IMG/VR virus record: IMGVR_UViG_3300038466_000014
From: a virus
DNA length: 64,000 nt
Strand: one strand, 5' to 3'
A program made the translations under genes and the position numbers. Below, one piece after another: positions 1,739-49,530 of this stretch (positions are counted from its first letter, which is position 1; each line of letters begins with the position of its first letter). The notes under the pieces were generated by a model. It ran no database searches, was not told where the DNA came from, and saw nothing but the letters and a program-made list of their open reading frames with translations.

Positions 1739-4315
1739 CTATTCATTTTCTACATTTTCATCCAATGTTAAATCAATTCCTTTATCGATCAGCCAGTCTC
1801 CCATCTGAATGAATATAGAATCGGTATCTGTATACAAAAGATACTTTATTAATTTCTCTTTATACCCTTCGGCAAATTCAGGATCAAAGTTTATCTCATT
1901 TGTCTTCATATACTCAGAAACATGATATCCGAGAAACTTAATTACTTCCTGTCCGGTAAGAGTAATAGACATTGCCAAATCATAGTTAAAGAATCTGAAT
2001 CCGGAATTTGCCAATACTCCATATAGGGCATTAGCCAAAATTTTATAAGCTGTTTGAATATTGTTATAATATTTCTCTTGTTCTTTCTCTTTACTTTTAA
2101 CATATACCTTCATCATATCTTTATATGTAGTACGCGAATCCATCAGATATTTCAGAATACTGTAAAGAAATGATAGCTCCTCATCATGACCTTTATATAT
2201 ACATCCGTTTATGGTTATAATATAATTATTGTCTATAATCCATTTTTCAAATTCATTATATGTAAATTGTTTTTCAATCATATTGTATAAAGGATCTAAA
2301 TATACTATAAAGTTATCTTTGTATCTGGATTGAATTTTATGTATAAAGTAATATGCCACATCTGTATCTACTTTCGCTACAAATGTATTTGGGCCTATGT
2401 TACAGCTTCTGACAATAGACGGATATAGAGACGTAAAGTCAAAGTCTATAACCCATTTATGAATTCCTGGTATTGGTTTTCTCACCACTGCTCCAGGAAT
2501 CTTAAACTTTTCTCCGATCTTAGGTCTGTTTCTGCATACACAATTTGAATTTTTGGCGTAAGACAACACCAGAGGATCCAGCAATCCAGTAGTGGTTTCT
2601 GCGGATCCCCAAGATGACGCGCAAATACGAATCAATTCATATTGTAACGATATATGTCCAAGTTTCTTGTCCAGTTCGTATAGAAGATCTGTATCGGTCT
2701 GCGAGTATTCCACGAACTTATGTATATCCTGTTCATATACGTGATCCAAGGTTCCTTCATAGGCAACTTTATCTTTTGATATATTTACTTTGGCTATGTG
2801 GGATAATTTATATGTGGGTTCTTTTCCCTGAGCAAATTTCTTATATAAAAACATCATATCCGGTATAGCTATTCCCGCTATATATGCCTTTTTAATATTG
2901 TTTATATCAAAACTCGCTCTTCCGACAGGAGAAATCTCGTTGAATGATATATGATTCTTTCGCATCCGCATAAACAAGGTTGGTATATCGAATGTAGATG
3001 TATTCCATCCTGTCAATATATCGGGCAATTCCGATTTCAATACTTTTATAAAATATAATATTAATTCTTTTTCAGTATCGAAAATTTTAACATCTTTATT
3101 ATCTAAAGATACCCCTGAATTTTTTATAACCCCTATGTCGTATATCAGCACCTGTGTAGGAGTATCTCCCATTTTATAAGATATGGCGTTTATCGGCGCA
3201 AGAGCGGTTTCCGGTCTGGGAAATGATTTTTTATGATCGTTCCACACCTCCATATCCCAATACATAGTCTTAAGATTGTAATTCTTTTCTGATAAATTTC
3301 TGAGAGTTTTCTGATAAAAATAGTCTATGGAATGTCTAAGATTTTTTTGCACATCGAATTCATATACTCCTACCTCATCACTTGGTTTTGTATCGAACCG
3401 GACAACGGCGTTTTCAACTTTTTCGACAATATCTGAAAAATCGAATGGTTTCTTTCCCTCGTAAAAATATCCATGATCACTCGATAATAAGTAAAACTTT
3501 TTTTCTTTTGTTTTAGCATTAACAAATGTGAAACAAATCTCTCTGGTCGCCTTTAAATTTTGACAGTCAATATATATCATATCGGGATCAAACATCCATT
3601 CCGGATAATTGAAATAAGTTATTGAATTATTTACTATAGAGTCCGGGGATTTATATTGCATTATATATTTAACGGCACTCTTAAAATCATTTAGAAATGA
3701 TTGATAGTCCTTTGTAAGTTTGCCATCAGTAGTTCTTATACCGCCATTTCGTTTCACGTAGGATGGGTGTGTCGTAATCATCACATCTCTTCCTTCAAAC
3801 TTATGGATCGTCCCCCCTTCCTGTGTTATCTTTTTAACGGATATACCAAGGGCTTTTGCTGAAGAATTACCCATGGCTAAAATCAATTTAGGATTGGTTA
3901 TTTTTATAATCTCAAGAAGATTGTTTCTGCAAAATGTATACGCCTCCTCTGGAGGATTTGCAGTGATCCATTTTTTTCCTTTTTTAGATAAGTTCGAACA
4001 TAAACATACATTGGATATGAATAGATTCAATTTACTCATTCCTGATTCAGTTTCCGCCGATCTGTATATGCTTCCGGCTCCTCCGATCAAAGGTCTTCCG
4101 GATTGCACTTCCTCATAGGCTGGAGCTTCTCCAAGGACCAGAATGTCTATATCTCTAATATACTCTCTATTACATTCTCCAGGAACTATCGGTTGTTTAT
4201 ATAAAGGACAATCGAAACAATTGGTAAATGGGGACTTCGGATTACTAATATTTCCCTCCTTTATAAAACAATTAAAATTTGAAAATCCTGTCAGATCTTG
4301 GCACCAGTCCAACAT
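1739..4315 (-). CDS. polB: Family B DNA polymerase, N-terminal subunit, fused to family-4 uracil-DNA glycosylase (UDG-exo-palm/fingers)
   Basis: UDG motifs CFDC, GEAP, SNVCLC, HPS. Exo motifs WDMEV, GWN..FD, YSQTD. Pol motifs DFTSLYPS, KILANALYG, YTDTDS. Stops about 25 aa after motif C. Confidence 0.92.
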   Translation of the reverse strand: MLDWCQDLTGFSNFNCFIKEGNISNPKSPFTNCFDCPLYKQPIVPGECNREYIRDIDILVLGEAPAYEEVQSGRPLIGGAGSIYRSAETESGMSKLNLFISNVCLCSNLSKKGKKWITANPPEEAYTFCRNNLLEIIKITNPKLILAMGNSSAKALGISVKKITQEGGTIHKFEGRDVMITTHPSYVKRNGGIRTTDGKLTKDYQSFLNDFKSAVKYIMQYKSPDSIVNNSITYFNYPEWMFDPDMIYIDCQNLKATREICFTFVNAKTKEKKFYLLSSDHGYFYEGKKPFDFSDIVEKVENAVVRFDTKPSDEVGVYEFDVQKNLRHSIDYFYQKTLRNLSEKNYNLKTMYWDMEVWNDHKKSFPRPETALAPINAISYKMGDTPTQVLIYDIGVIKNSGVSLDNKDVKIFDTEKELILYFIKVLKSELPDILTGWNTSTFDIPTLFMRMRKNHISFNEISPVGRASFDINNIKKAYIAGIAIPDMMFLYKKFAQGKEPTYKLSHIAKVNISKDKVAYEGTLDHVYEQDIHKFVEYSQTDTDLLYELDKKLGHISLQYELIRICASSWGSAETTTGLLDPLVLSYAKNSNCVCRNRPKIGEKFKIPGAVVRKPIPGIHKWVIDFDFTSLYPSIVRSCNIGPNTFVAKVDTDVAYYFIHKIQSRYKDNFIVYLDPLYNMIEKQFTYNEFEKWIIDNNYIITINGCIYKGHDEELSFLYSILKYLMDSRTTYKDMMKVYVKSKEKEQEKYYNNIQTAYKILANALYGVLANSGFRFFNYDLAMSITLTGQEVIKFLGYHVSEYMKTNEINFDPEFAEGYKEKLIKYLLYTDTDSIFIQMGDWLIDKGIDLTLDENVENE

Positions 4316-5060
4316 CCTCAGACAGCGGTTTTAAGAAATTGGATATACGTATATCCCAGGAAAATTCAATCATCTTATCAATATCTATTATGTAATAACT
4401 CGGAAGAAATTCCTCTTCGTATGGCATAGCAATAGCATTTCCAATTTTAATTCCTTCATCTATTAATTTCTTAATCCTGTCAGGAGATTTCATATAGTTA
4501 ATACCCTCAATATTAAACATATATCCTTTAGTACCTTGTTCGAAATATGGATATTCCAGTTTATTCCATAATTTCATACTTCTAATATGCATCGTCTGTG
4601 TTTTGTACTCATCATCATTTTTATTAAAATGGACAGGACGGGCAGCCTTCTTACTTCCTTCCAAAATACCAGTGATAAGTATTTCACGAGAGTCTGTTAT
4701 GAATTTAGCAATCTTTTTAAAATCTATATAGTATTCTCTAACAAGCATATCGAGTAACATAGACAATCTTTCTTTAGTAAATTCGGGATAATCCGATCTC
4801 CTAACCTCAATACCTTTATTCTCCATTTTATCCACAGGATCTTTTTCTTTATTTATGATGTGCAACGAATATTTCTTTCCCACTCCTGGGAAATATCCGG
4901 TATCTGCGACTAATTCCTGTTTGGCGTCAAAAAGATTGAACTTATCTTTGATATTATGTTTTCTGCCAAACTCCAGCGCTATAGGTACAATCGCGTTGGC
5001 TTTTATATTTTCAGCCTCTTTTAAAATAAGCGCAACGAGGTCTTCTTTTTTGATGCTCAT
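4272..5060 (-). CDS. polB: Family B DNA polymerase, C-terminal subunit (palm end and thumb)
   Basis: KQELVAD..GKKYS and KGIEVRRSDYPEFTK are the PolB motifs that follow motif C and are missing from 1739-4315. Confidence 0.85.
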   Translation of the reverse strand: MSIKKEDLVALILKEAENIKANAIVPIALEFGRKHNIKDKFNLFDAKQELVADTGYFPGVGKKYSLHIINKEKDPVDKMENKGIEVRRSDYPEFTKERLSMLLDMLVREYYIDFKKIAKFITDSREILITGILEGSKKAARPVHFNKNDDEYKTQTMHIRSMKLWNKLEYPYFEQGTKGYMFNIEGINYMKSPDRIKKLIDEGIKIGNAIAMPYEEEFLPSYYIIDIDKMIEFSWDIRISNFLKPLSEDVGLVPRSDRIFKF

Positions 5061-5200
5061 CGGGCACCGCCCGATGATTCCAGTTGAACCGCCTTTTCGG
5101 AACTCTGGTTTGGCGGACCACCAATAGACCGCACGGCTGAAACACTGTGTCCAACCGTTTGCTCATAGAGAAACCACCCATTGGCAGAAACATTAAAGGC
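5050..5200 (-). ncRNA. Predicted TnpB omegaRNA (right-end RNA); 5' limit approximate
   Basis: Inferred from established IS605 biology: the scaffold overlaps the tnpB 3' end and right end. The guide would be the flank AAAAGAAGACCTCGTTGCG. Confidence 0.5.
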
Positions 5201-6049
5201 CGCGTTTGAGTCTCTATGGTCAAAGTGAGAACATGAACATTTGTAGTTCTTTCCGTTTGGTTTGTTGATACTTCCGCACCTTGAGCAAACCTGACTTGTA
5301 TAAGCAGGATTTACGAAGAAGATTGGTATGCCAAGCAAAGATGCTTTGTATTTGATAAAGGTTTCCAAAGCAAAACGATGTGATTTGGCATAGTCAACAA
5401 CGGAACGACTCACTTTATGATTGATATCTTTAACTCTGTTTGACTGTTTACTTCTGATTTTCTTTAAAGCATCTTTAGCACCTTTCTTTTGTAAGTTCTT
5501 TCTTCTATTGCGGAAACTTTTAGTTATTCCAGACACATCTGGACCTAACTTCCTAACCTTTCCAGACATAACATCCGCACAAACCACAACATTCTCCACA
5601 CTGTTTCTATCAACTCCAAGAAATCCTTGAATTTTCTGTTCTTGTAAAACAGGAGTGTTGTAAGAGTAGGATATAAACCATTGCCCATTTCTTTTGAAAA
5701 ACTCTGCCTGTCTAATAAAACCAGAAATGGTTTTAGGAAATACAACAGGCAAAATAGATTTTTTGAAGAAGGCTGGGATTCGAATACCACCATCTACAAT
5801 CTTTACTTGTTTTCCTTTATCACCGCAAACAGGTAAAACAAGATTTTTGACCTGCTTGATCTTTTTGTTTCTCTGATATTTAGAAATAAGACTTTTAGCA
5901 AGAACACAAGGTATCTCTTTGTAATATTTAGAAGAAGATTTAGTTCTGTCTTCTATCATTCTGTTTACACAAACAGAAGCTTTTTGGTATAACTCGTCCA
6001 AAATAGGAGTAAGATTGTGAGGTATAACGACCTTAAAAGTAAGACACAT
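5057..6049 (-). CDS. tnpB: TnpB RNA-guided nuclease homologue, probably inactive
   Basis: RuvC-I GVDRN, Zn finger TSQVCSRCG..CSC and RuvC-III HRDSNAAFN present. The RuvC-II (IVLEDL-type) segment is not seen between AKSHR and LETFIKYKA. Likely start ATG 6049; frame is open to 6127. Confidence 0.88.
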   Translation of the reverse strand: MCLTFKVVIPHNLTPILDELYQKASVCVNRMIEDRTKSSSKYYKEIPCVLAKSLISKYQRNKKIKQVKNLVLPVCGDKGKQVKIVDGGIRIPAFFKKSILPVVFPKTISGFIRQAEFFKRNGQWFISYSYNTPVLQEQKIQGFLGVDRNSVENVVVCADVMSGKVRKLGPDVSGITKSFRNRRKNLQKKGAKDALKKIRSKQSNRVKDINHKVSRSVVDYAKSHRFALETFIKYKASLLGIPIFFVNPAYTSQVCSRCGSINKPNGKNYKCSCSHFDHRDSNAAFNVSANGWFLYEQTVGHSVSAVRSIGGPPNQSSEKAVQLESSGGAR

Positions 6050-6415
6050 TGTAAGTTCTTTCTCGTATACCATGTTGTGTTTGTAACCAAGTTTCGCTAT
6101 AAAATTTTCCATCAACACATTCTCCAAGATTTGATTTTAACTCTTCCAGAAATGGCTAAACAAATGTCTGTAAATATTTCTGAAATAAACGGTGAAGAAG
6201 ACCACATACATTTTCTTTTGGAAACAACACCACAAGACAATCTTGGTGGTGTTATAGGGGCACTAAAAGCACGGTCTTCTTCGTATCTACACGACAAATA
6301 TATCTTTCCATATTTGGGAAAACATTCCAGAACTCTTTGGTCTTCTGGGTATTTTATAGTATCCACTGGCGGTGCTCCTTTAGATGTTATTAAAAAGTAT
6401 ATCCAAAACCAATAA
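6017..6415 (+). CDS. tnpA: IS200/IS605 Y1 HUH transposase
   Basis: YHVVFVTKFR, HUH motif DHIHFL, LWSSGYF and catalytic YIQNQ. AGGAG SD before the GTG start. Confidence 0.93.
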   Translation: MRYNDLKSKTHCKFFLVYHVVFVTKFRYKIFHQHILQDLILTLPEMAKQMSVNISEINGEEDHIHFLLETTPQDNLGGVIGALKARSSSYLHDKYIFPYLGKHSRTLWSSGYFIVSTGGAPLDVIKKYIQNQ

Positions 6416-6488
6416 TAAGTATTAAATCCTACTTGTCAAGAGCCTAACCCCGAACACCGTTCGGGGATTGCGGCTCTAATACTGTTGA

Positions 6489-7154
6489 TTACACCTCCGT
6501 ACCAACCAATAGCTCCAGGTCTATATCACTATGATCCGAAAAAAATCTATCATTATCAACTTTTATATTTTTATTAAATAATTTCAAATAGTTTAACATT
6601 GACATAAGATCATCTTTATTATCTTCTTTCTCTATAATATCATTCACCGCCTCTAAAGCCAAATATTCTTTCCCGGATAATTTTTGTAGTTCGGATAGTT
6701 CCTTCTTAGAAATCTTTTTCTTTTTGTACTCGTTTAACTCCAAGTATTCCATCACCCCTGAATCGTTTTCTTCTTCTATTTTTTTAATCAATAGCTGTAA
6801 TTCGTATTTTTTTAGTAGTGGAAACTTCTGATGTAGATGTTGGATTTTCTCATCCACAGACGTAAATTTGAAAAACGATAAATCTTCTTTCTTTATATTA
6901 TAATACCGAATAAATTTCTTAAAGTATAAGAAAAATTCTGTATCATCTAATTTAAAAATATTATAATCGTTAAAATAATCATTTATAAAATCTGTTATAT
7001 TATCCATATAACCAAACATTGCTATAACAGATCTTTTTGATATTTGTTTTTGGATAACTGGATCGAGTGGAACATTTATAGGCTGATATAATAACCAATA
7101 TTTGAATTTAGCATATGGAGAATACTGTTTACCGCGTTCTTCTCCACCACTCAT
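6489..7154 (-). CDS. Hypothetical protein
   Basis: 221-aa ORF in the operon upstream of the polymerase genes. Confidence 0.7.
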   Translation of the reverse strand: MSGGEERGKQYSPYAKFKYWLLYQPINVPLDPVIQKQISKRSVIAMFGYMDNITDFINDYFNDYNIFKLDDTEFFLYFKKFIRYYNIKKEDLSFFKFTSVDEKIQHLHQKFPLLKKYELQLLIKKIEEENDSGVMEYLELNEYKKKKISKKELSELQKLSGKEYLALEAVNDIIEKEDNKDDLMSMLNYLKLFNKNIKVDNDRFFSDHSDIDLELLVGTEV

Positions 7155-7449: not shown

Positions 7450-8709
7450 TTATTTCTCTCCTGCCATTAATGTTTTGAATTTTTTTACAACTTCATCGGT
7501 ATTTATCGAGTTCATACAATTAGGAGTATTATCCAAAGCCCTGACCATTTTACACTGTGTAATTCGATCGTCGTGTAGGAAACAAGGATACTTGTCGCAT
7601 TTTAGAATGTTTTTATCGGGTTGTACCCATTCGGAATTTTTGTAATATTTTACCCGCGTATCTCCAGTAAAGGGTCCATATAATGTAAGTGTGGGTTTCC
7701 CAAACGCCGCTCCAATATGACTGAAAGACGAATCGAGTCCTACCACCCCATGACATTTGGAAAGAACATAACATGCGTGCGCTATCGTTTCCGAACTCGA
7801 AGACGCATTGGTTATTCTTCCAGGAGAGTCCTTAAAATACGCAGCTATAAATTTATCATAATATGTACTTCTTTCCGGTCTATCCAATATAACAAAATTA
7901 AAATCGGTTTCTTTAATAAGCTGTTCTATAAGCAATCTCCAAAATTCCATAGACGCCGTTCTCAACATAGAAGATGTTGACATCTGCAATATAATAGTGT
8001 TTTCCGGAAGACGTACAAAATATTTTTGTTCAAATCCTTTAACGAACGATGTATTTGTCGTAAGCTCAGGACACCACATCTGTTTGGTCATGTCTATATT
8101 TAATCCGGCGGTCTTGTTCATCAGATCATAAGCATTTACACGTTCAGCTTCTTTACACGACTCTATAACCCCATCGAACATCAGATGATAATTAGCCATA
8201 AACATGGCTTTTTGGTCGAATGGGATAGGAATAACTCTGTCGATCAACCCCTCTGGATAGAAATAAAACAAATCCATGTTTTTTGGAGCAGTAGCAAACA
8301 AAATTTTACAGGTCGGATATTTTGCCTTTAAGTATTTAATCATAGGTTGTATGAAAATAAGATCTCCAATACCACCCGTTCGTGAAATGAGCAGTGTTTT
8401 GTTATTTAGATCTTGTCCATAGTATCTTCTGAACTGGGATTTAAAAGTTGTTTTGTGCGGTTTAAGTATTACCCTTCTGGTAGTCTTTGCCCGTTCCGCA
8501 TCGGCAAACATATATATCGGCATGGTAATAATCTGGTCTCTGGTTATTTTGAATTTTTGACCGCCCACATCCATTACCGCATTCTCAAGGACTTTCGCGT
8601 TGATGTACTTTGGTGTTTCCTTAATTATATCATCTACGGTCTCATAAATATCTTTTCGATTTATAAGTTCACCTACCCCAAGCTTTCTAAGTTTTGTTTT
8701 GGACTGCAT
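7450..8709 (-). CDS. Glycosyltransferase family 9 (heptosyltransferase-like, GT-B)
   Basis: RTGGIGDL and GLDSSFSHIGAAFGKPTLTLYGP signatures. Confidence 0.85.
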   Translation of the reverse strand: MQSKTKLRKLGVGELINRKDIYETVDDIIKETPKYINAKVLENAVMDVGGQKFKITRDQIITMPIYMFADAERAKTTRRVILKPHKTTFKSQFRRYYGQDLNNKTLLISRTGGIGDLIFIQPMIKYLKAKYPTCKILFATAPKNMDLFYFYPEGLIDRVIPIPFDQKAMFMANYHLMFDGVIESCKEAERVNAYDLMNKTAGLNIDMTKQMWCPELTTNTSFVKGFEQKYFVRLPENTIILQMSTSSMLRTASMEFWRLLIEQLIKETDFNFVILDRPERSTYYDKFIAAYFKDSPGRITNASSSSETIAHACYVLSKCHGVVGLDSSFSHIGAAFGKPTLTLYGPFTGDTRVKYYKNSEWVQPDKNILKCDKYPCFLHDDRITQCKMVRALDNTPNCMNSINTDEVVKKFKTLMAGEK

Positions 8710-9821: not shown

Positions 9822-11648
9822 ATGGCTATAAATCTTATAATCGCAATTAATTCCAACAACGTCAATGCCGAGTACGTTTCTAAACTATCATTCATATATT
9901 CAAAATTAAATCCGTGTATTGGAATTATGGGAACAGATAGTGAAAAAATACTCGAATCGATTAATAATAAGCAGATTGTTAAATTCTTATCTCCATCTCC
10001 GTTTAACTATAGCATATGTATAAACAAGATTATGTCCACTATATCGGCAGAAGATACTGTCATTATTTCCGATGGTTATGCGTTGTTCAATCAAAACCCG
10101 ATTATAGAAATGATCGGAACTACTGATTTAGACTCTTCTTTTATAGTGAATAAGATCATTAGAATGGAACCGGATGCCAAACCACTATCTTTCGATTCAA
10201 ACAAGATTATAAGTGCTCTTGGGTTAAAAATTAAACATATTAAAACCCCGTCTCCGGATATACCGCTGGTAATTACAAAAGGTTATCATATCATAAGAAG
10301 TTTAAATGGTTTAGAAGAAACATATCAAACAGAGGCGTCGAGATTGAATATCATTTATAAATTATCCACTTACGGGTTATCCAAGATCGAGTGCGACAAA
10401 CCTGGATTATGTATAAATCAGGCAATATCCAGTCTAAAATACGATGAAACCACAAACGCGGTAAATATGATAAATGATAATTCAAATGGAGAAAAACTGT
10501 TTATACAGAACAATTACAAAAAAGAAATATTTAATGTTTATTTAGAATCACCAGATGTCTCAGACCCGGTAATAGAACCGGTATCGGAAGAACCCTTAGT
10601 CGTGGAAAATATAACTACGGATATTCCAGAAACCACAGAGGTTCAGGACCATGTAGAGAATGTGGAAGTTGTCGTAACTCCATTCGAAGGTATTGTGGTC
10701 GAGCAGATAGTCGCCACAGATGACGTTTTAGAGCGTCCTCTGGTAGTTCCTTCTTCTAATAGAAGCGGGATCCCCAATCTGAGACAACACTTTAAAAGAA
10801 GGATGGACGAGAAATATAGATATTCGTTGAAGAAGATGGGTTCTACTGTGCTCCTGGCAATGGAGTCAAACATTCCAGATATTATTTCCACATCTCCGTT
10901 AATATCATTTTTTAACAAAAACGGATATTATGTCGACGTACTTACTCAACAAAAAATAGGCAATATAAGCGCTCTTATAGATTCCTCGTTGATAAGAAAC
11001 AGATATGACGTATCCGATATGACTAAAAACAACATACCGTTTAAATCATATGTCTATATAATCAAAACTTCTAATTGCAATATCAAGCTTCCTGTCATTT
11101 ATCCAACATTAAATTGTAAATCAGGAACAAGCGCCGGTCCTGTTGAAGAAAACTTTAAAATACTGGATTATATCTATAAAGGAACTATTAGAAGGGAAGA
11201 CTATCCTCCACCATGTATATTTACACCTACGGTTTATCCTTTAAATCCAAAAACCATATTCTTATGCACGAGTCAAAAAACGCAATCCCGGGTAGATATC
11301 AATTTTGACGAAATCGCCAATAATTTGGTTGGTAAATATCCTGACATAGATATTATCCAAATAAATCTAAAAGGTGAAACTCCGTATCCGGATTGCGTTA
11401 ATAAAAAGATAACTGATCACCGTTCTATGTCCGTTAATGAAATAGGAGGGTATCTTAAAAAAGTTGTTTTAACTATTTCATCCTGTAATTCAGATCTTCC
11501 GTGGATATGCTATGGTCTTGGGACCGGTTTATTGTTGTTTGGTCCAAATATAAGTCAGATACCAAATTATCTTAATGTTAAAAAAGTGGCAACTCCATTT
11601 AATACTAATATTTCACTTATAATTGACAAAATATGCCCACTGTCTTAA
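9822..11648 (+). CDS. Putative degenerate two-domain glycosyltransferase-like protein
   Basis: GT-A-like N-terminus (FNYSICIN, ISDG), acidic linker and GT9-like C-terminus (NSDLPWICYGLGTGLLLFGP). Confidence 0.4.
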   Translation: MAINLIIAINSNNVNAEYVSKLSFIYSKLNPCIGIMGTDSEKILESINNKQIVKFLSPSPFNYSICINKIMSTISAEDTVIISDGYALFNQNPIIEMIGTTDLDSSFIVNKIIRMEPDAKPLSFDSNKIISALGLKIKHIKTPSPDIPLVITKGYHIIRSLNGLEETYQTEASRLNIIYKLSTYGLSKIECDKPGLCINQAISSLKYDETTNAVNMINDNSNGEKLFIQNNYKKEIFNVYLESPDVSDPVIEPVSEEPLVVENITTDIPETTEVQDHVENVEVVVTPFEGIVVEQIVATDDVLERPLVVPSSNRSGIPNLRQHFKRRMDEKYRYSLKKMGSTVLLAMESNIPDIISTSPLISFFNKNGYYVDVLTQQKIGNISALIDSSLIRNRYDVSDMTKNNIPFKSYVYIIKTSNCNIKLPVIYPTLNCKSGTSAGPVEENFKILDYIYKGTIRREDYPPPCIFTPTVYPLNPKTIFLCTSQKTQSRVDINFDEIANNLVGKYPDIDIIQINLKGETPYPDCVNKKITDHRSMSVNEIGGYLKKVVLTISSCNSDLPWICYGLGTGLLLFGPNISQIPNYLNVKKVATPFNTNISLIIDKICPLS

Positions 11649-17936: not shown

Positions 17937-18037
17937 ACTCCCCTCCTTTAACAACAAAACAATGAATGATAAAATTATCAGCCATTATAATATCCATGTA
18001 ATCTTAAGGATATTATAATGGCTGTTCTCATATTGAT

Positions 18038-18051
18038 ATTTAATATATATA
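18038..18051 (-). promoter_or_regulatory. Motif B
   Basis: Exact copy. Confidence 0.55.
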
Positions 18052-18084
18052 ACAAAATTTAATAATTTTTTAATAATCAATTAC

Positions 18085-18745: not shown

Positions 18746-19375
18746 TTAATATACTACCTTATTATCTTCTATTATCTTAATAATAGAATTAATCATCTCA
18801 TCGGTTATAGTATTACTAATATTTGTAAGATAATTTGACAGTTCCGTTATATAAGCAGGTCTATTTCCTCTATCCATAGACTCAATCCTATCTTTTTCTA
18901 GAGGATCACATGCACCAATATGTAATAGCAACATCTTATTAATATACTTATATGTATAAAAATAAATTGCCACAAGTAATTTTAATAAATCCTTATGTGA
19001 CCATTGTTCTATATGAGGAATCATACTAATATTATCAGCATCAAAACTTATACTATAATGTAATAACCACTCATTAGAAATACCACCAACCTTCTGCATA
19101 TTACGTATGTCTAAAATAATACCTACCAACATTCTTAATTTGTTCTGCATAGATGTATCTTTAGGTAGTGGTATTATACAACGATTAATAGTAGAGCCTA
19201 AACACGTTTCAAATTTGCATAACTTTGGTATATAAAAATCATCTATCTTACAAGTACTAATTGTTTTAAAAATAAGACTATTATCATCTATAAGTTTCTT
19301 TACTACTTTGAGTATTATATCAGAGTTATAATGGTATGTATCCAAGTCAATGGGTGTCATATATTTGATGTTCAT
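18746..19375 (-). CDS. Hypothetical protein; start codon lies in the mini-IS right end
   Basis: 209 aa. ATGAACATCAA is the right end of the 147-bp element. Confidence 0.65.
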   Translation of the reverse strand: MNIKYMTPIDLDTYHYNSDIILKVVKKLIDDNSLIFKTISTCKIDDFYIPKLCKFETCLGSTINRCIIPLPKDTSMQNKLRMLVGIILDIRNMQKVGGISNEWLLHYSISFDADNISMIPHIEQWSHKDLLKLLVAIYFYTYKYINKMLLLHIGACDPLEKDRIESMDRGNRPAYITELSNYLTNISNTITDEMINSIIKIIEDNKVVY

Positions 19376-19511
19376 TGAATACCTCCCGATGATTCCGGTC
19401 TGGAGATCTCCGGCCTTTCGGCGTGAGTTCCAGCGTTAATGATCAATTTAATCCTCCTTGTTTACAGAGCCTAACCCCGAACACCGTTCGGGGATTGCGG
19501 CTCTAATACTG
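19365..19511 (-). mobile_element. 147-bp non-autonomous derivative of the IS605 element
   Basis: First 46 nt are identical to the IS left end. Ends GGAATCATCGGGAGGTATTCAATGAACATCAA versus IS GGAATCATCGGGCGGTGCCCGATGAGCATCAA. Confidence 0.88.
19372..19446 (-). CDS. 24-aa mini-ORF inside the mini-IS (TnpB C-terminus-like end)
   Basis: AAGGAGG SD, TTG start, MIINAGTHAERPEISRPESSGGIQ (TnpB ends ESSGGAR). Its TGA overlaps the downstream ATG. Confidence 0.55.
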   Translation of the reverse strand: MIINAGTHAERPEISRPESSGGIQ

Positions 19512-19825
19512 TTCATATAATCGCGCCCATATAAATTTGATTTTTTATTTAAAATGGCACACACAAATTCTATTAATCTGTATTTCGCGATAGAAATATC
19601 TCCGGTAGTTATAATATAAGGATTACCAGCATTATCCAAATATACTTTGTCGAGAAAAATATCTAAAATTATTTCCTCTTCTTTCAATCTTTTATATTTA
19701 TCAACAATCGTATATTTTACTTTAATATTTTCCTCGGTTAACATCTCTTGTTTATATAATCCTTGAGTAATTTTAAAATCTGTATCTATTAGTTCGACCG
19801 AATGTGGCTTTGTAATATTATTCAT
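19448..19825 (-). CDS. Hypothetical protein; C-terminal ~21 aa encoded by the mini-IS left end
   Basis: Reads through the left-end hairpin. In frame with 18746-19375 once the element is removed. Confidence 0.6.
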   Translation of the reverse strand: MNNITKPHSVELIDTDFKITQGLYKQEMLTEENIKVKYTIVDKYKRLKEEEIILDIFLDKVYLDNAGNPYIITTGDISIAKYRLIEFVCAILNKKSNLYGRDYMNSIRAAIPERCSGLGSVNKED

Positions 19826-49199: not shown

Positions 49200-49442
49200 A
49201 TGAACATTCTATGTAAATTAGGACGACATAAATGGGTTAATACGAGGGCTAAGAATAAAGCAAAACTTGAAAAAGAAATAGAGGAGAATTATTACGATAA
49301 TTTATATTTTGATATGTATATAACCGATGTTGTTCTATGTACGAAAAAATGTGAAAGATGTGGTATTATGTTTGATGAAATAAAAGAATATACTAAATGG
49401 TATGTGGAGACCAAAATGAAGCAAAAAAATAATCAGATTTAA
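49200..49442 (+). CDS. Small DUF1660-like protein
   Basis: LCKLGRHKW...CERCG. Confidence 0.55.
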   Translation: MNILCKLGRHKWVNTRAKNKAKLEKEIEENYYDNLYFDMYITDVVLCTKKCERCGIMFDEIKEYTKWYVETKMKQKNNQI

Positions 49443-49443
49443 T

Positions 49444-49457
49444 TATATATATTAAAT
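49444..49457 (+). promoter_or_regulatory. Motif B
   Basis: Exact copy. Confidence 0.55.
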
Positions 49458-49530
49458 ATTAATCAAACCCTCTCAATTCGGGTTGATTGTAGTACAAACA
49501 ATATAATATTTTTTGGGAGTCGAGTCTGAA

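Follow-up and report, generated by a model that had tools for sequence, protein, structure and literature searches.

How can a transposon occupy the first codons of a gene in a phage genome and leave that gene with a start? In the tightly packed genome of a phage, a transposon should be lethal unless it is spliced out, as introns, inteins, and IStrons are. The question is raised by a stretch of 64,000 nt (referred to here as the window) from IMG/VR virus record IMGVR_UViG_3300038466_000014, which carries an insertion sequence (IS) of the IS200/IS605 family (copy 1) at the 5' end of a gene for the C-terminal part of a family B DNA polymerase (polB-C) and a miniature derivative of the same element (copy 2) within a second open reading frame (ORF). 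The original prediction held that the element inserts into ATG-AA sites and re-supplies an in-frame start codon. The observation behind it is confirmed and its interpretation is partly supported: comparison among related insertions gives solid support to placement at start codons, and a restart of translation within the element is what we infer as the mechanism. These data point to a third solution, in which the geometry of the element's ends regenerates the displaced start codon and translation is probably relayed from the element's own ORF.

The right end of copy 1 and the start of polB-C

As had been predicted, the minus strand at 5081-5040 reads GGAAT, a hairpin, AGCA-TCAA, and then the flank AAAAGAAGAC. 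The right guide GAAT (5080-5077) is followed by the hairpin CATCGGGC-GGT-GCCCGATG (5076-5058), which AGCA links to the cleavage site TCAA (5053-5050); the terminus of copy 1, after GAAT and the hairpin, reads ATGAGCATCAA. An ATG at 5060-5058 sits in the 3' arm of this hairpin, overlaps the tnpB stop codon TGA at 5059-5057 (ATGA), and opens polB-C, the first 11 nt of which, start codon included, are element sequence. Because no ATG, GTG, or TTG occurs between the junction and the invariant residues L13 and E15 of polB-C, the ATG of the element is the only plausible start of the gene, in keeping with the earlier claim that this codon lies inside the IS.

By profile matches, polB-C corresponds to the C-terminal third of family B polymerases (phrog_262 positions 598-823; PF00136 positions 281-350). 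The eight relatives found all stand alone, with lengths of 263-270 aa, and the existence of polB-C as a separate gene is therefore not an artefact of the insertion. Each of these relatives has its own Shine-Dalgarno (SD) sequence and ATG, and their N-termini start 1-10 residues ahead of a conserved K-E-[ED], within a few residues of the junction. In the relatives with enough context (3/3), the C-terminal piece lies upstream of the piece carrying the UDG, exonuclease, and palm regions, as it does here. The polymerase of the window (1739-5060, minus strand) is split and permuted in order, with the 262-aa C-terminal piece upstream of an 858-aa UDG-exonuclease-palm piece and an overlap of 44 nt between the two ORFs. 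The permuted order is kept in distant relatives (loci L003, L004, L005, and L006), where zero to three small genes lie between the pieces, and no intein signature was seen at the split.

Homology among copy 1, copy 2, and about 20 related copies stops at 5050 and 6484, and contigs of four unrelated metagenomes align to 5050-6486 alone and differ outside; the boundaries of copy 1 are thus independently confirmed. On the left side, a 221-aa ORF (6489-7154, minus strand) closes with GAG-GTG-TAA, followed by TCAA and the left end CAGTATTAGAGCC, and the first A of the ATCAA flank doubles as the final base of the upstream stop codon (TAA, 6491-6489). Copy 1 is the sole copy with a C at flank position -3. 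Since all other flanks read (A/T)TGAA and the left guide CAAT predicts TGAA, this C is best read as a G>C mutation that followed insertion. Changing ATCAA back to ATGAA places an orphan GGAGG, which ends 4 nt ahead of the rebuilt ATG, in front of a start that overlaps the upstream stop as TAATG. The C>G reconstruction required by the original prediction is therefore plausible, given that copy 1 alone carries the C, the position of the GGAGG, and the start of the relatives near the junction. The predicted IS-free junction would read GGAGGTGTA-ATG-AAA-AAA, so the protein would have begun MKKED where it now begins MSIKKED, and the insertion, which would have added Ser-Ile alone to it, would presumably have been harmless.

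By every criterion that could be tested, the element belongs to the IS200/IS605 family. There are subterminal hairpins at both ends and no terminal inverted repeats, insertion is 3' of a tetra- or pentanucleotide, and the flanks of copy 1 and copy 2 lack a target duplication. A right-end stem of 8-9 bp is present in both minimum-energy and centroid folds. At the left end, the 4-nt guide CAAT (6470-6467) lies at the 5' foot of a nested hairpin with inner stem CCCCGAAC/GTTCGGGG, loop GGT, and outer stem AGAGCC/GGCTCT, and the stem covaries among copies (AAC/GTT, AAG/CTT, AGC/GCT). The genes tnpA and tnpB have the divergent arrangement of IS605, in which their 5' ends overlap. TnpA keeps the HIH motif and a C-terminal YIQNQ, both conserved with full-length copies, and its gene starts with GTG here and with ATG elsewhere. 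In tnpB, an in-frame deletion of 84 nt (junction 5369/5368) takes out 28 aa including the RuvC-II motif VLEDL, and the frame remains intact after it, through to the TGA shared with the polB-C start. TnpB of copy 1 is homologous but, judging by this loss, probably nuclease-dead. Two short LE-coding repeats flank the deletion, and the full-length relatives, which are 1519-1520 bp long against 1435 bp for copy 1, are intact at this place (L011, L014, L015). Just inside the left end, a site that is promoter-like by consensus match faces tnpB and polB-C. The features of the window are collected in Table I.

Table I. Features of the two element copies and of the genes that they adjoin
Feature	Coordinates	Strand	Basis
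IS200/IS605-family element, copy 1	5050..6484	minus	ends set against copy 2 and about 20 related copies
Right end of copy 1	5050..5080	minus	direct reading; pattern scan; folding
PolB C-terminal fragment gene, 262 aa, MSIK/KEDL...	4272..5060	minus	profile matches; alignment of relatives
tnpB, probable start ATG at 6073	5057..6127	minus	PF07282 at 2e-18; phrog_506 at 2e-28; alignments
tnpA, Y1 HUH transposase, 132 aa, GTG start	6017..6415	plus	PF01797 at 1.6e-29; alignment
Promoter-like TTGACA-16-TATTAT	6412..6439	minus	11/12 consensus matches; kept in related copies
Left-end subterminal hairpin	6439..6477	minus	direct reading; compensatory stem variants in other copies
Left flank ATCAA (target and left cleavage site)	6485..6489	minus	all other copies (A/T)TGAA
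Orphan Shine-Dalgarno GGAGG	6494..6498	minus	direct sequence reading
Copy 2, 147-bp miniature derivative (left end and right end)	19365..19511	minus	repeat, pattern scan, flank joining
Upstream half of split ORF, 105 native and 20 left-end codons, stop inside element	19448..19825	minus	ORF reading
Downstream half of split ORF, 209 aa, MNIK/YMTP..., start at right-end ATG	18746..19375	minus	ORF reading
24-codon mini-ORF, residual tnpB frame, TTG start at 19446	19372..19446	minus	sequence reading
GGGAGG Shine-Dalgarno in copy 2	19382..19387	minus	sequence reading and folding

Related insertions and the second copy

Pattern scans for the element ends, which covered viral, metagenome, and genome contigs, recovered about 20 independent insertions with the same ends. 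The set comprises full-length copies (L011, L014, L015), TnpB-only relatives (L024, L025), miniatures, and solo right-end remnants; L025 has no recognizable left end. Three of the four genome-contig matches (L026, L028, L029) were discarded as chance matches without a hairpin. The left flank is ATGAA in eight cases (copy 2, listed as win2, L011, L013, L015, L020, L021, L024, and L032), TTGAA in two (L001 and L014), and ATCAA in copy 1 alone, which makes (A/T)TGAA at 10/11 left flanks of the window and the fetched loci. Several of the matching contigs from lake, groundwater, sediment, and landfill metagenomes go on with a plus-strand CAT, i.e. with an ATGAA flank. The exact guide pairing scheme applied here is reportedly that of structural work on IS608. 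In that element, the right guide GAAT (GR) pairs with the right cleavage site TCAA (CR) and the left guide AAAG (GL) with the left cleavage site TTAC (CL) (PMC5934647; PMC3201880). At the sequence level, the right guide and cleavage site found here are those of IS608 (PMC5934647), as the original prediction had it, and the same correspondence applied to the left guide CAAT yields the TGAA that is seen in the flanks, which agrees with the TGNA/TGAA target that had been forecast.

The right end of the family always closes with ATG-AGC-ATC-AA, and its ATG shares the cut-relative phase of the target ATG. Because the two share this phase, insertion directly behind ATGAA at a Met-Lys or Met-Asn start rebuilds an in-frame start. 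Placement was classified by removing each element and joining its flanks in silico. The start-codon class holds copy 1, L011 (TAA-ATG-AA at the cut, an upstream GAGG as SD, and a 189-codon ORF), and L024 (ATGAA at the cut, preceded by a T-run and a TATAAT-like box, with an ORF of 133 codons). Insertions known by their right end only (L017, L018, L023, L025) carry long in-frame ORFs. The Pfam domains NT5C in L023 and RF-1 in L025 start 3-4 residues past the junction codon (NT5C profile position 4 at residue 7; RF-1 profile position 5 at residue 9), and the junction is therefore the native N-terminus in both. Besides copy 1, insertions at native gene starts are L011, L024, L023, L025, and L017, for which the predicted in-frame landing on starts holds. 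Copy 2, L001, and L013/L022 lie in a compatible phase within or at the end of an ORF, and L010, L020 (just past a tRNA-like 3' end), and L021 are intergenic.

The right-end ATG opens an ORF of at least 60 codons in 8/18 assessable insertions. For an ORF-based null, all WTGAA sites of the same contigs were taken, 1697 on the two strands together; 19.6% of them open at least 60 codons, and in 7.2% the frame is also closed no more than 25 codons upstream. Restricted to the element's strand, the values are 23.6 and 8.8%. Against a null of 19.6-23.6%, the in-frame count has a binomial p = 0.014-0.042. Direct start sites (3/10) give p = 0.03-0.05, and counting the remnants L017 and L023 raises start sites to 5/12 against 7-9% expected (p ~0.001-0.002).

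Further features were noted at individual loci. In L023 (reverse complement of 11000-11065), about 48 nt of right end are left between an SD-ATG and the NT5C-like nucleotidase gene, and the ATGA that closes a short leader ORF falls on the donated ATG, an arrangement that looks like a fossil of the same relay. The viral contig IMGVR_UViG_3300035158_000869 bears two copies (L020:12360-12720 and L032), one of which is a 293-bp miniature directly after a tRNA-like 3' end that is open throughout, from the flanking ATG to ATGA. The full-length copy L015:9666-11185 breaks an ORF of about 250 codons with an HNH endonuclease-like C-terminus (CEYCG motif) and would be one selfish element within another. 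Megablast and blastn searches with the element gave no match among GenBank phages, a query for IS-free relatives of the gene targeted in L011 recovered L011 itself only, and a sequencing-run search gave no run with more than 6% of the sampled words and listed no RNA run.

The second copy in the window, its end, and its flank are real, as had been predicted. Copy 2 shares a 51-nt left-end repeat with copy 1 at 98% identity, and the 32-nt right-end pattern matches twice in the window against 0 expected (100 shuffles); the right end reads ATGAACATCAA followed by ATATATG, and the left flank is ATGAA (19516-19512), then CAG. With copy 2 excised in silico, 105 upstream and 205 downstream codons form one 310-codon frame, and since removal of the element joins both halves in this way, copy 2 splits a gene. 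The flanking ATG is an internal Met, codon 105 of the joined ORF. Of the empty sites proposed earlier, the one at copy 1 therefore stands as a plausible reconstruction, and the one at copy 2, a Met-Lys start turned from MKY to MNIKY, has to be given up. Both halves are ORFans, and frame continuity is what suggests a single-ORF ancestor.

The interior of copy 2 has changed in a way that bears on how the downstream half starts. Its mini-ORF has AAGGAGG 6 nt upstream of the TTG, and the closing TGA (19374-19372) overlaps the right-end ATG (19375-19373). The hairpin GGGCGG of copy 1 is replaced by GGGAGG, 6 nt ahead of this ATG: five substitutions break the right-end stem (GCCCG to ATTCA), create the GGGAGG, and leave the ATG unpaired. 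These changes suggest selection for direct initiation after copy 2 became immobile. The database entry for the downstream gene gives a 204-aa product, with its start five codons further in. Elsewhere in the window, a 419-aa ORF (7450-8709, minus strand) with a glycosyltransferase family 9 (heptosyltransferase-like) domain adjoins the replication genes, and a pair of 40-nt AT-rich inverted repeats (18032-18071 and 49424-49463, 85% complementary) has its arms 31 kb apart and may be due to chance.

Translation restart and the competing explanations

We consider it likely that copy 1 is a decaying IS200/IS605 element that became fixed at the 5' end of polB-C and supplies this gene with a rebuilt start. 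The host is an uncultured phage of about 180 kb with a stand-alone polB-C. Insertion in this family is 3' of (A/T)TGAA, where the left guide CAAT would pair with TGAA in an IS608-like manner, and transcripts across the insertion could start at phage promoters upstream or at the promoter-like site in the left end. The downstream gene would then be translated by termination-reinitiation, by ribosomes that have read tnpB. In the folds, a 9-bp stem takes up the AUG of copy 1 and that of L011, and the AUG of copy 2 is free and preceded by an SD. A good SD is absent before the right-end ATG in copy 1 and L011, where GGGCGGT is one mismatch from GGAGGT. Because the AUG lies in a stem, lacks a good SD, and overlaps the tnpB stop, a restart by ribosomes ending tnpB is most likely the start mechanism, being the most economical one. 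Every deletion derivative that feeds a gene retains a tnpB-frame ORF ending ATGA, namely copy 1 despite its 84-nt deletion, copy 2 (24 codons), L017 (42), L018 (47), and L023 (22); in L017 the upstream ATGAA is fused to the tnpB tail. Copy 1 has lost RuvC-II by an in-frame deletion that preserved the frame to ATGA, and the old ATG would have drifted to ATC, leaving the phage dependent on the ATG of the element, such that precise excision would not restore the gene. Copy 2 would represent a second outcome, in which insertion in a compatible phase divided an ORF, a canonical SD took the place of the hairpin, and a relay ORF ending ATGA was kept.

Several observations weigh against this account. 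The enrichment is modest and depends on a crude ORF-based null. In-frame placement alone is weak evidence, since the TGA stop leaves two phases inside ORFs and the prior is about one half; the informative part is the excess at start codons, because selection should purge unrescued insertions there. L014, L015 (in the HNH-like gene), and L032 lie inside ORFs in the other phase, with the ATG out of frame, and here the predicted in-frame landing fails. Intergenic copies (L001, L010, L020) conserve the right-end ATG just as well, and there hairpin pairing and the tnpB stop codon account for it, so that it need not have evolved as a start. L027 also has an in-frame fusion to the tnpB tail, again without a downstream gene. 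MKKED as the original N-terminus is a reconstruction: no IS-free relative of the window phage was found among GenBank phages (megablast, blastn), viral contigs, or the protein relatives of polB-C, of which none in viral contigs is close, those at the protein level being at most 50% identical and not syntenic upstream. Finally, TnpB binding or guide-RNA processing at the right end could interfere with translation.

Alternatively, the geometry may be a by-product rather than a strategy, in that the ATG exists for the hairpin stem and the tnpB stop and its use by polB-C is a lucky accident of one fixed copy. We regard this explanation as rather unlikely. On this view, surviving insertions in packed phage genomes cluster at gene boundaries, and ATGAA is a frequent string where genes begin in AT-rich DNA. 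Intergenic copies, among them L001, L010, L016, L020, and L027, all keep the ATG, the sequence opposite it in the stem is CAT in some copies and CGT in others with no change in the ATG itself, which is what the tnpB stop would demand, the strict counts give enrichment p-values no better than 0.01-0.05, and three intragenic insertions are out of frame. If nothing were rescued, however, insertions after the ATG of an essential gene should be depleted, and at least five or six were found; copy 2, which has neither the hairpin nor a tnpB coding constraint, still has the ATG and has gained a perfect SD; and the length of the linker puts the right-end ATG in the exact phase of the target ATG.

It is improbable that polB-C is not expressed from the ATG of the element at all, being instead a pseudogene, a gene with a non-canonical start past the junction, or a gene expressed in an excised subpopulation. 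TnpA still looks intact, but precise excision with the ATCAA flank gives ATC-AAA and no start, the left cleavage site mismatches its guide, and no contig was seen that spans a join across the whole element, the assembled contigs being related elements of other genomes. The 262-codon frame is open in an AT-rich genome with every invariant residue of the family kept, and the lack of ATG, GTG, and TTG past the junction leaves a canonical start nowhere else to lie. Still less credible is an IStron-like removal of the element from RNA that restores a normal mRNA junction. The element does lie in a gene context, as IStrons do, but the 69 nt from the left end to tnpA are too short for a ribozyme, splicing would yield ATC-AAA without a start codon, and a comparison of 4900-6600 with Rfam, group I introns included, yielded nothing at E up to 1. 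Frameshifting at the A-rich junction, which would fuse TnpB to PolB, was also considered and dropped, as the tnpB frame stops ahead of the A-rich stretch.

The restart reading may be extended, tentatively, to an IS605 lineage specialized for phage genomes as a start-codon homing element, with ATGAA serving as both target and transposon-associated motif (TAM) and a right end built for a two-residue cost. The guide RNA would then read the first codons of the invaded gene, and the design of the right end would consist in the phase of the ATG, the ATGA overlap with tnpB, and the proto-SD GGGCGGT. As an RNA-guided nuclease element residing in essential genes, it would spread between co-infecting phages, and the host would become dependent on it once the old ATG decays. 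Such an element, if real, would be a splicing-free counterpart to introns, inteins, and IStrons. Confirmation of the rebuilt start itself would account for the persistence of TnpB elements in essential phage genes, forecast the sites open to them (ATGAA starts), and show a route by which a host gene comes to depend on a selfish element. It would also supply an annotation rule, since gene callers may misplace such starts, and a natural translation-restart cassette that is compact and portable.

Comparison with known systems

We found no paper on an IS605 or TnpB element that restores a displaced start codon, and a 2026 review of OMEGA systems does not mention start codons. The closest likeness is to IS608/IS605 of Helicobacter pylori, with which the element shares a Y1 HUH TnpA together with TnpB, the divergent IS605-type layout of their genes, subterminal hairpins with a 4-nt guide 5' of each, the identical right-end pair GAAT/TCAA, and insertion 3' of a fixed short target without duplication. 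It differs in its target, (A/T)TGAA rather than TTAC, in a linker of 4 nt rather than about 10 nt between the right hairpin and TCAA, and in a right-end ATG that overlaps the tnpB stop and matches the target ATG in phase; moreover, its hosts are phages and many of its copies lie on start codons. IStrons, in which a group I intron is fused to IS200/IS605 or IS607 (in Clostridioides difficile, Bacillus, and Clostridium botulinum), likewise carry TnpB, persist in genes with little damage to them, and insert after a pentanucleotide typical of the family. Unlike in IStrons, no group I ribozyme was found at the 5' end of the element in the Rfam search, and rescue would take place at translation initiation rather than by splicing and would be fully effective at gene starts only, an insertion elsewhere leaving the protein split.

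On the side of the nuclease, the tnpB 3' end and the right end are laid out for an omega-RNA with a flank-derived guide, as in ISDra2. By analogy, the left-flank motif would be the TAM, and TCAA at the right end as opposed to TGAA at the target would separate self from non-self. The guide would differ in corresponding to the first codons of the invaded gene, and copy 1, whose TnpB lacks RuvC-II, is not expected to home. The loss of RuvC-II recalls TldR-like dead TnpB regulators; decay is favored over such a domestication because tnpB sits inside a transposon shell. Copy 2, for its part, resembles miniature inverted-repeat and palindrome-associated transposable elements (MITEs and PATEs) and the in-frame Rickettsia palindromic elements (RPEs) in being protein-less, reduced to its ends, and lodged within a coding region. 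It differs in that it adds no in-frame peptide: translation of the split ORF ends within it for the upstream part and begins anew for the downstream part, with an SD, an ATG, and a relay ORF of its own.

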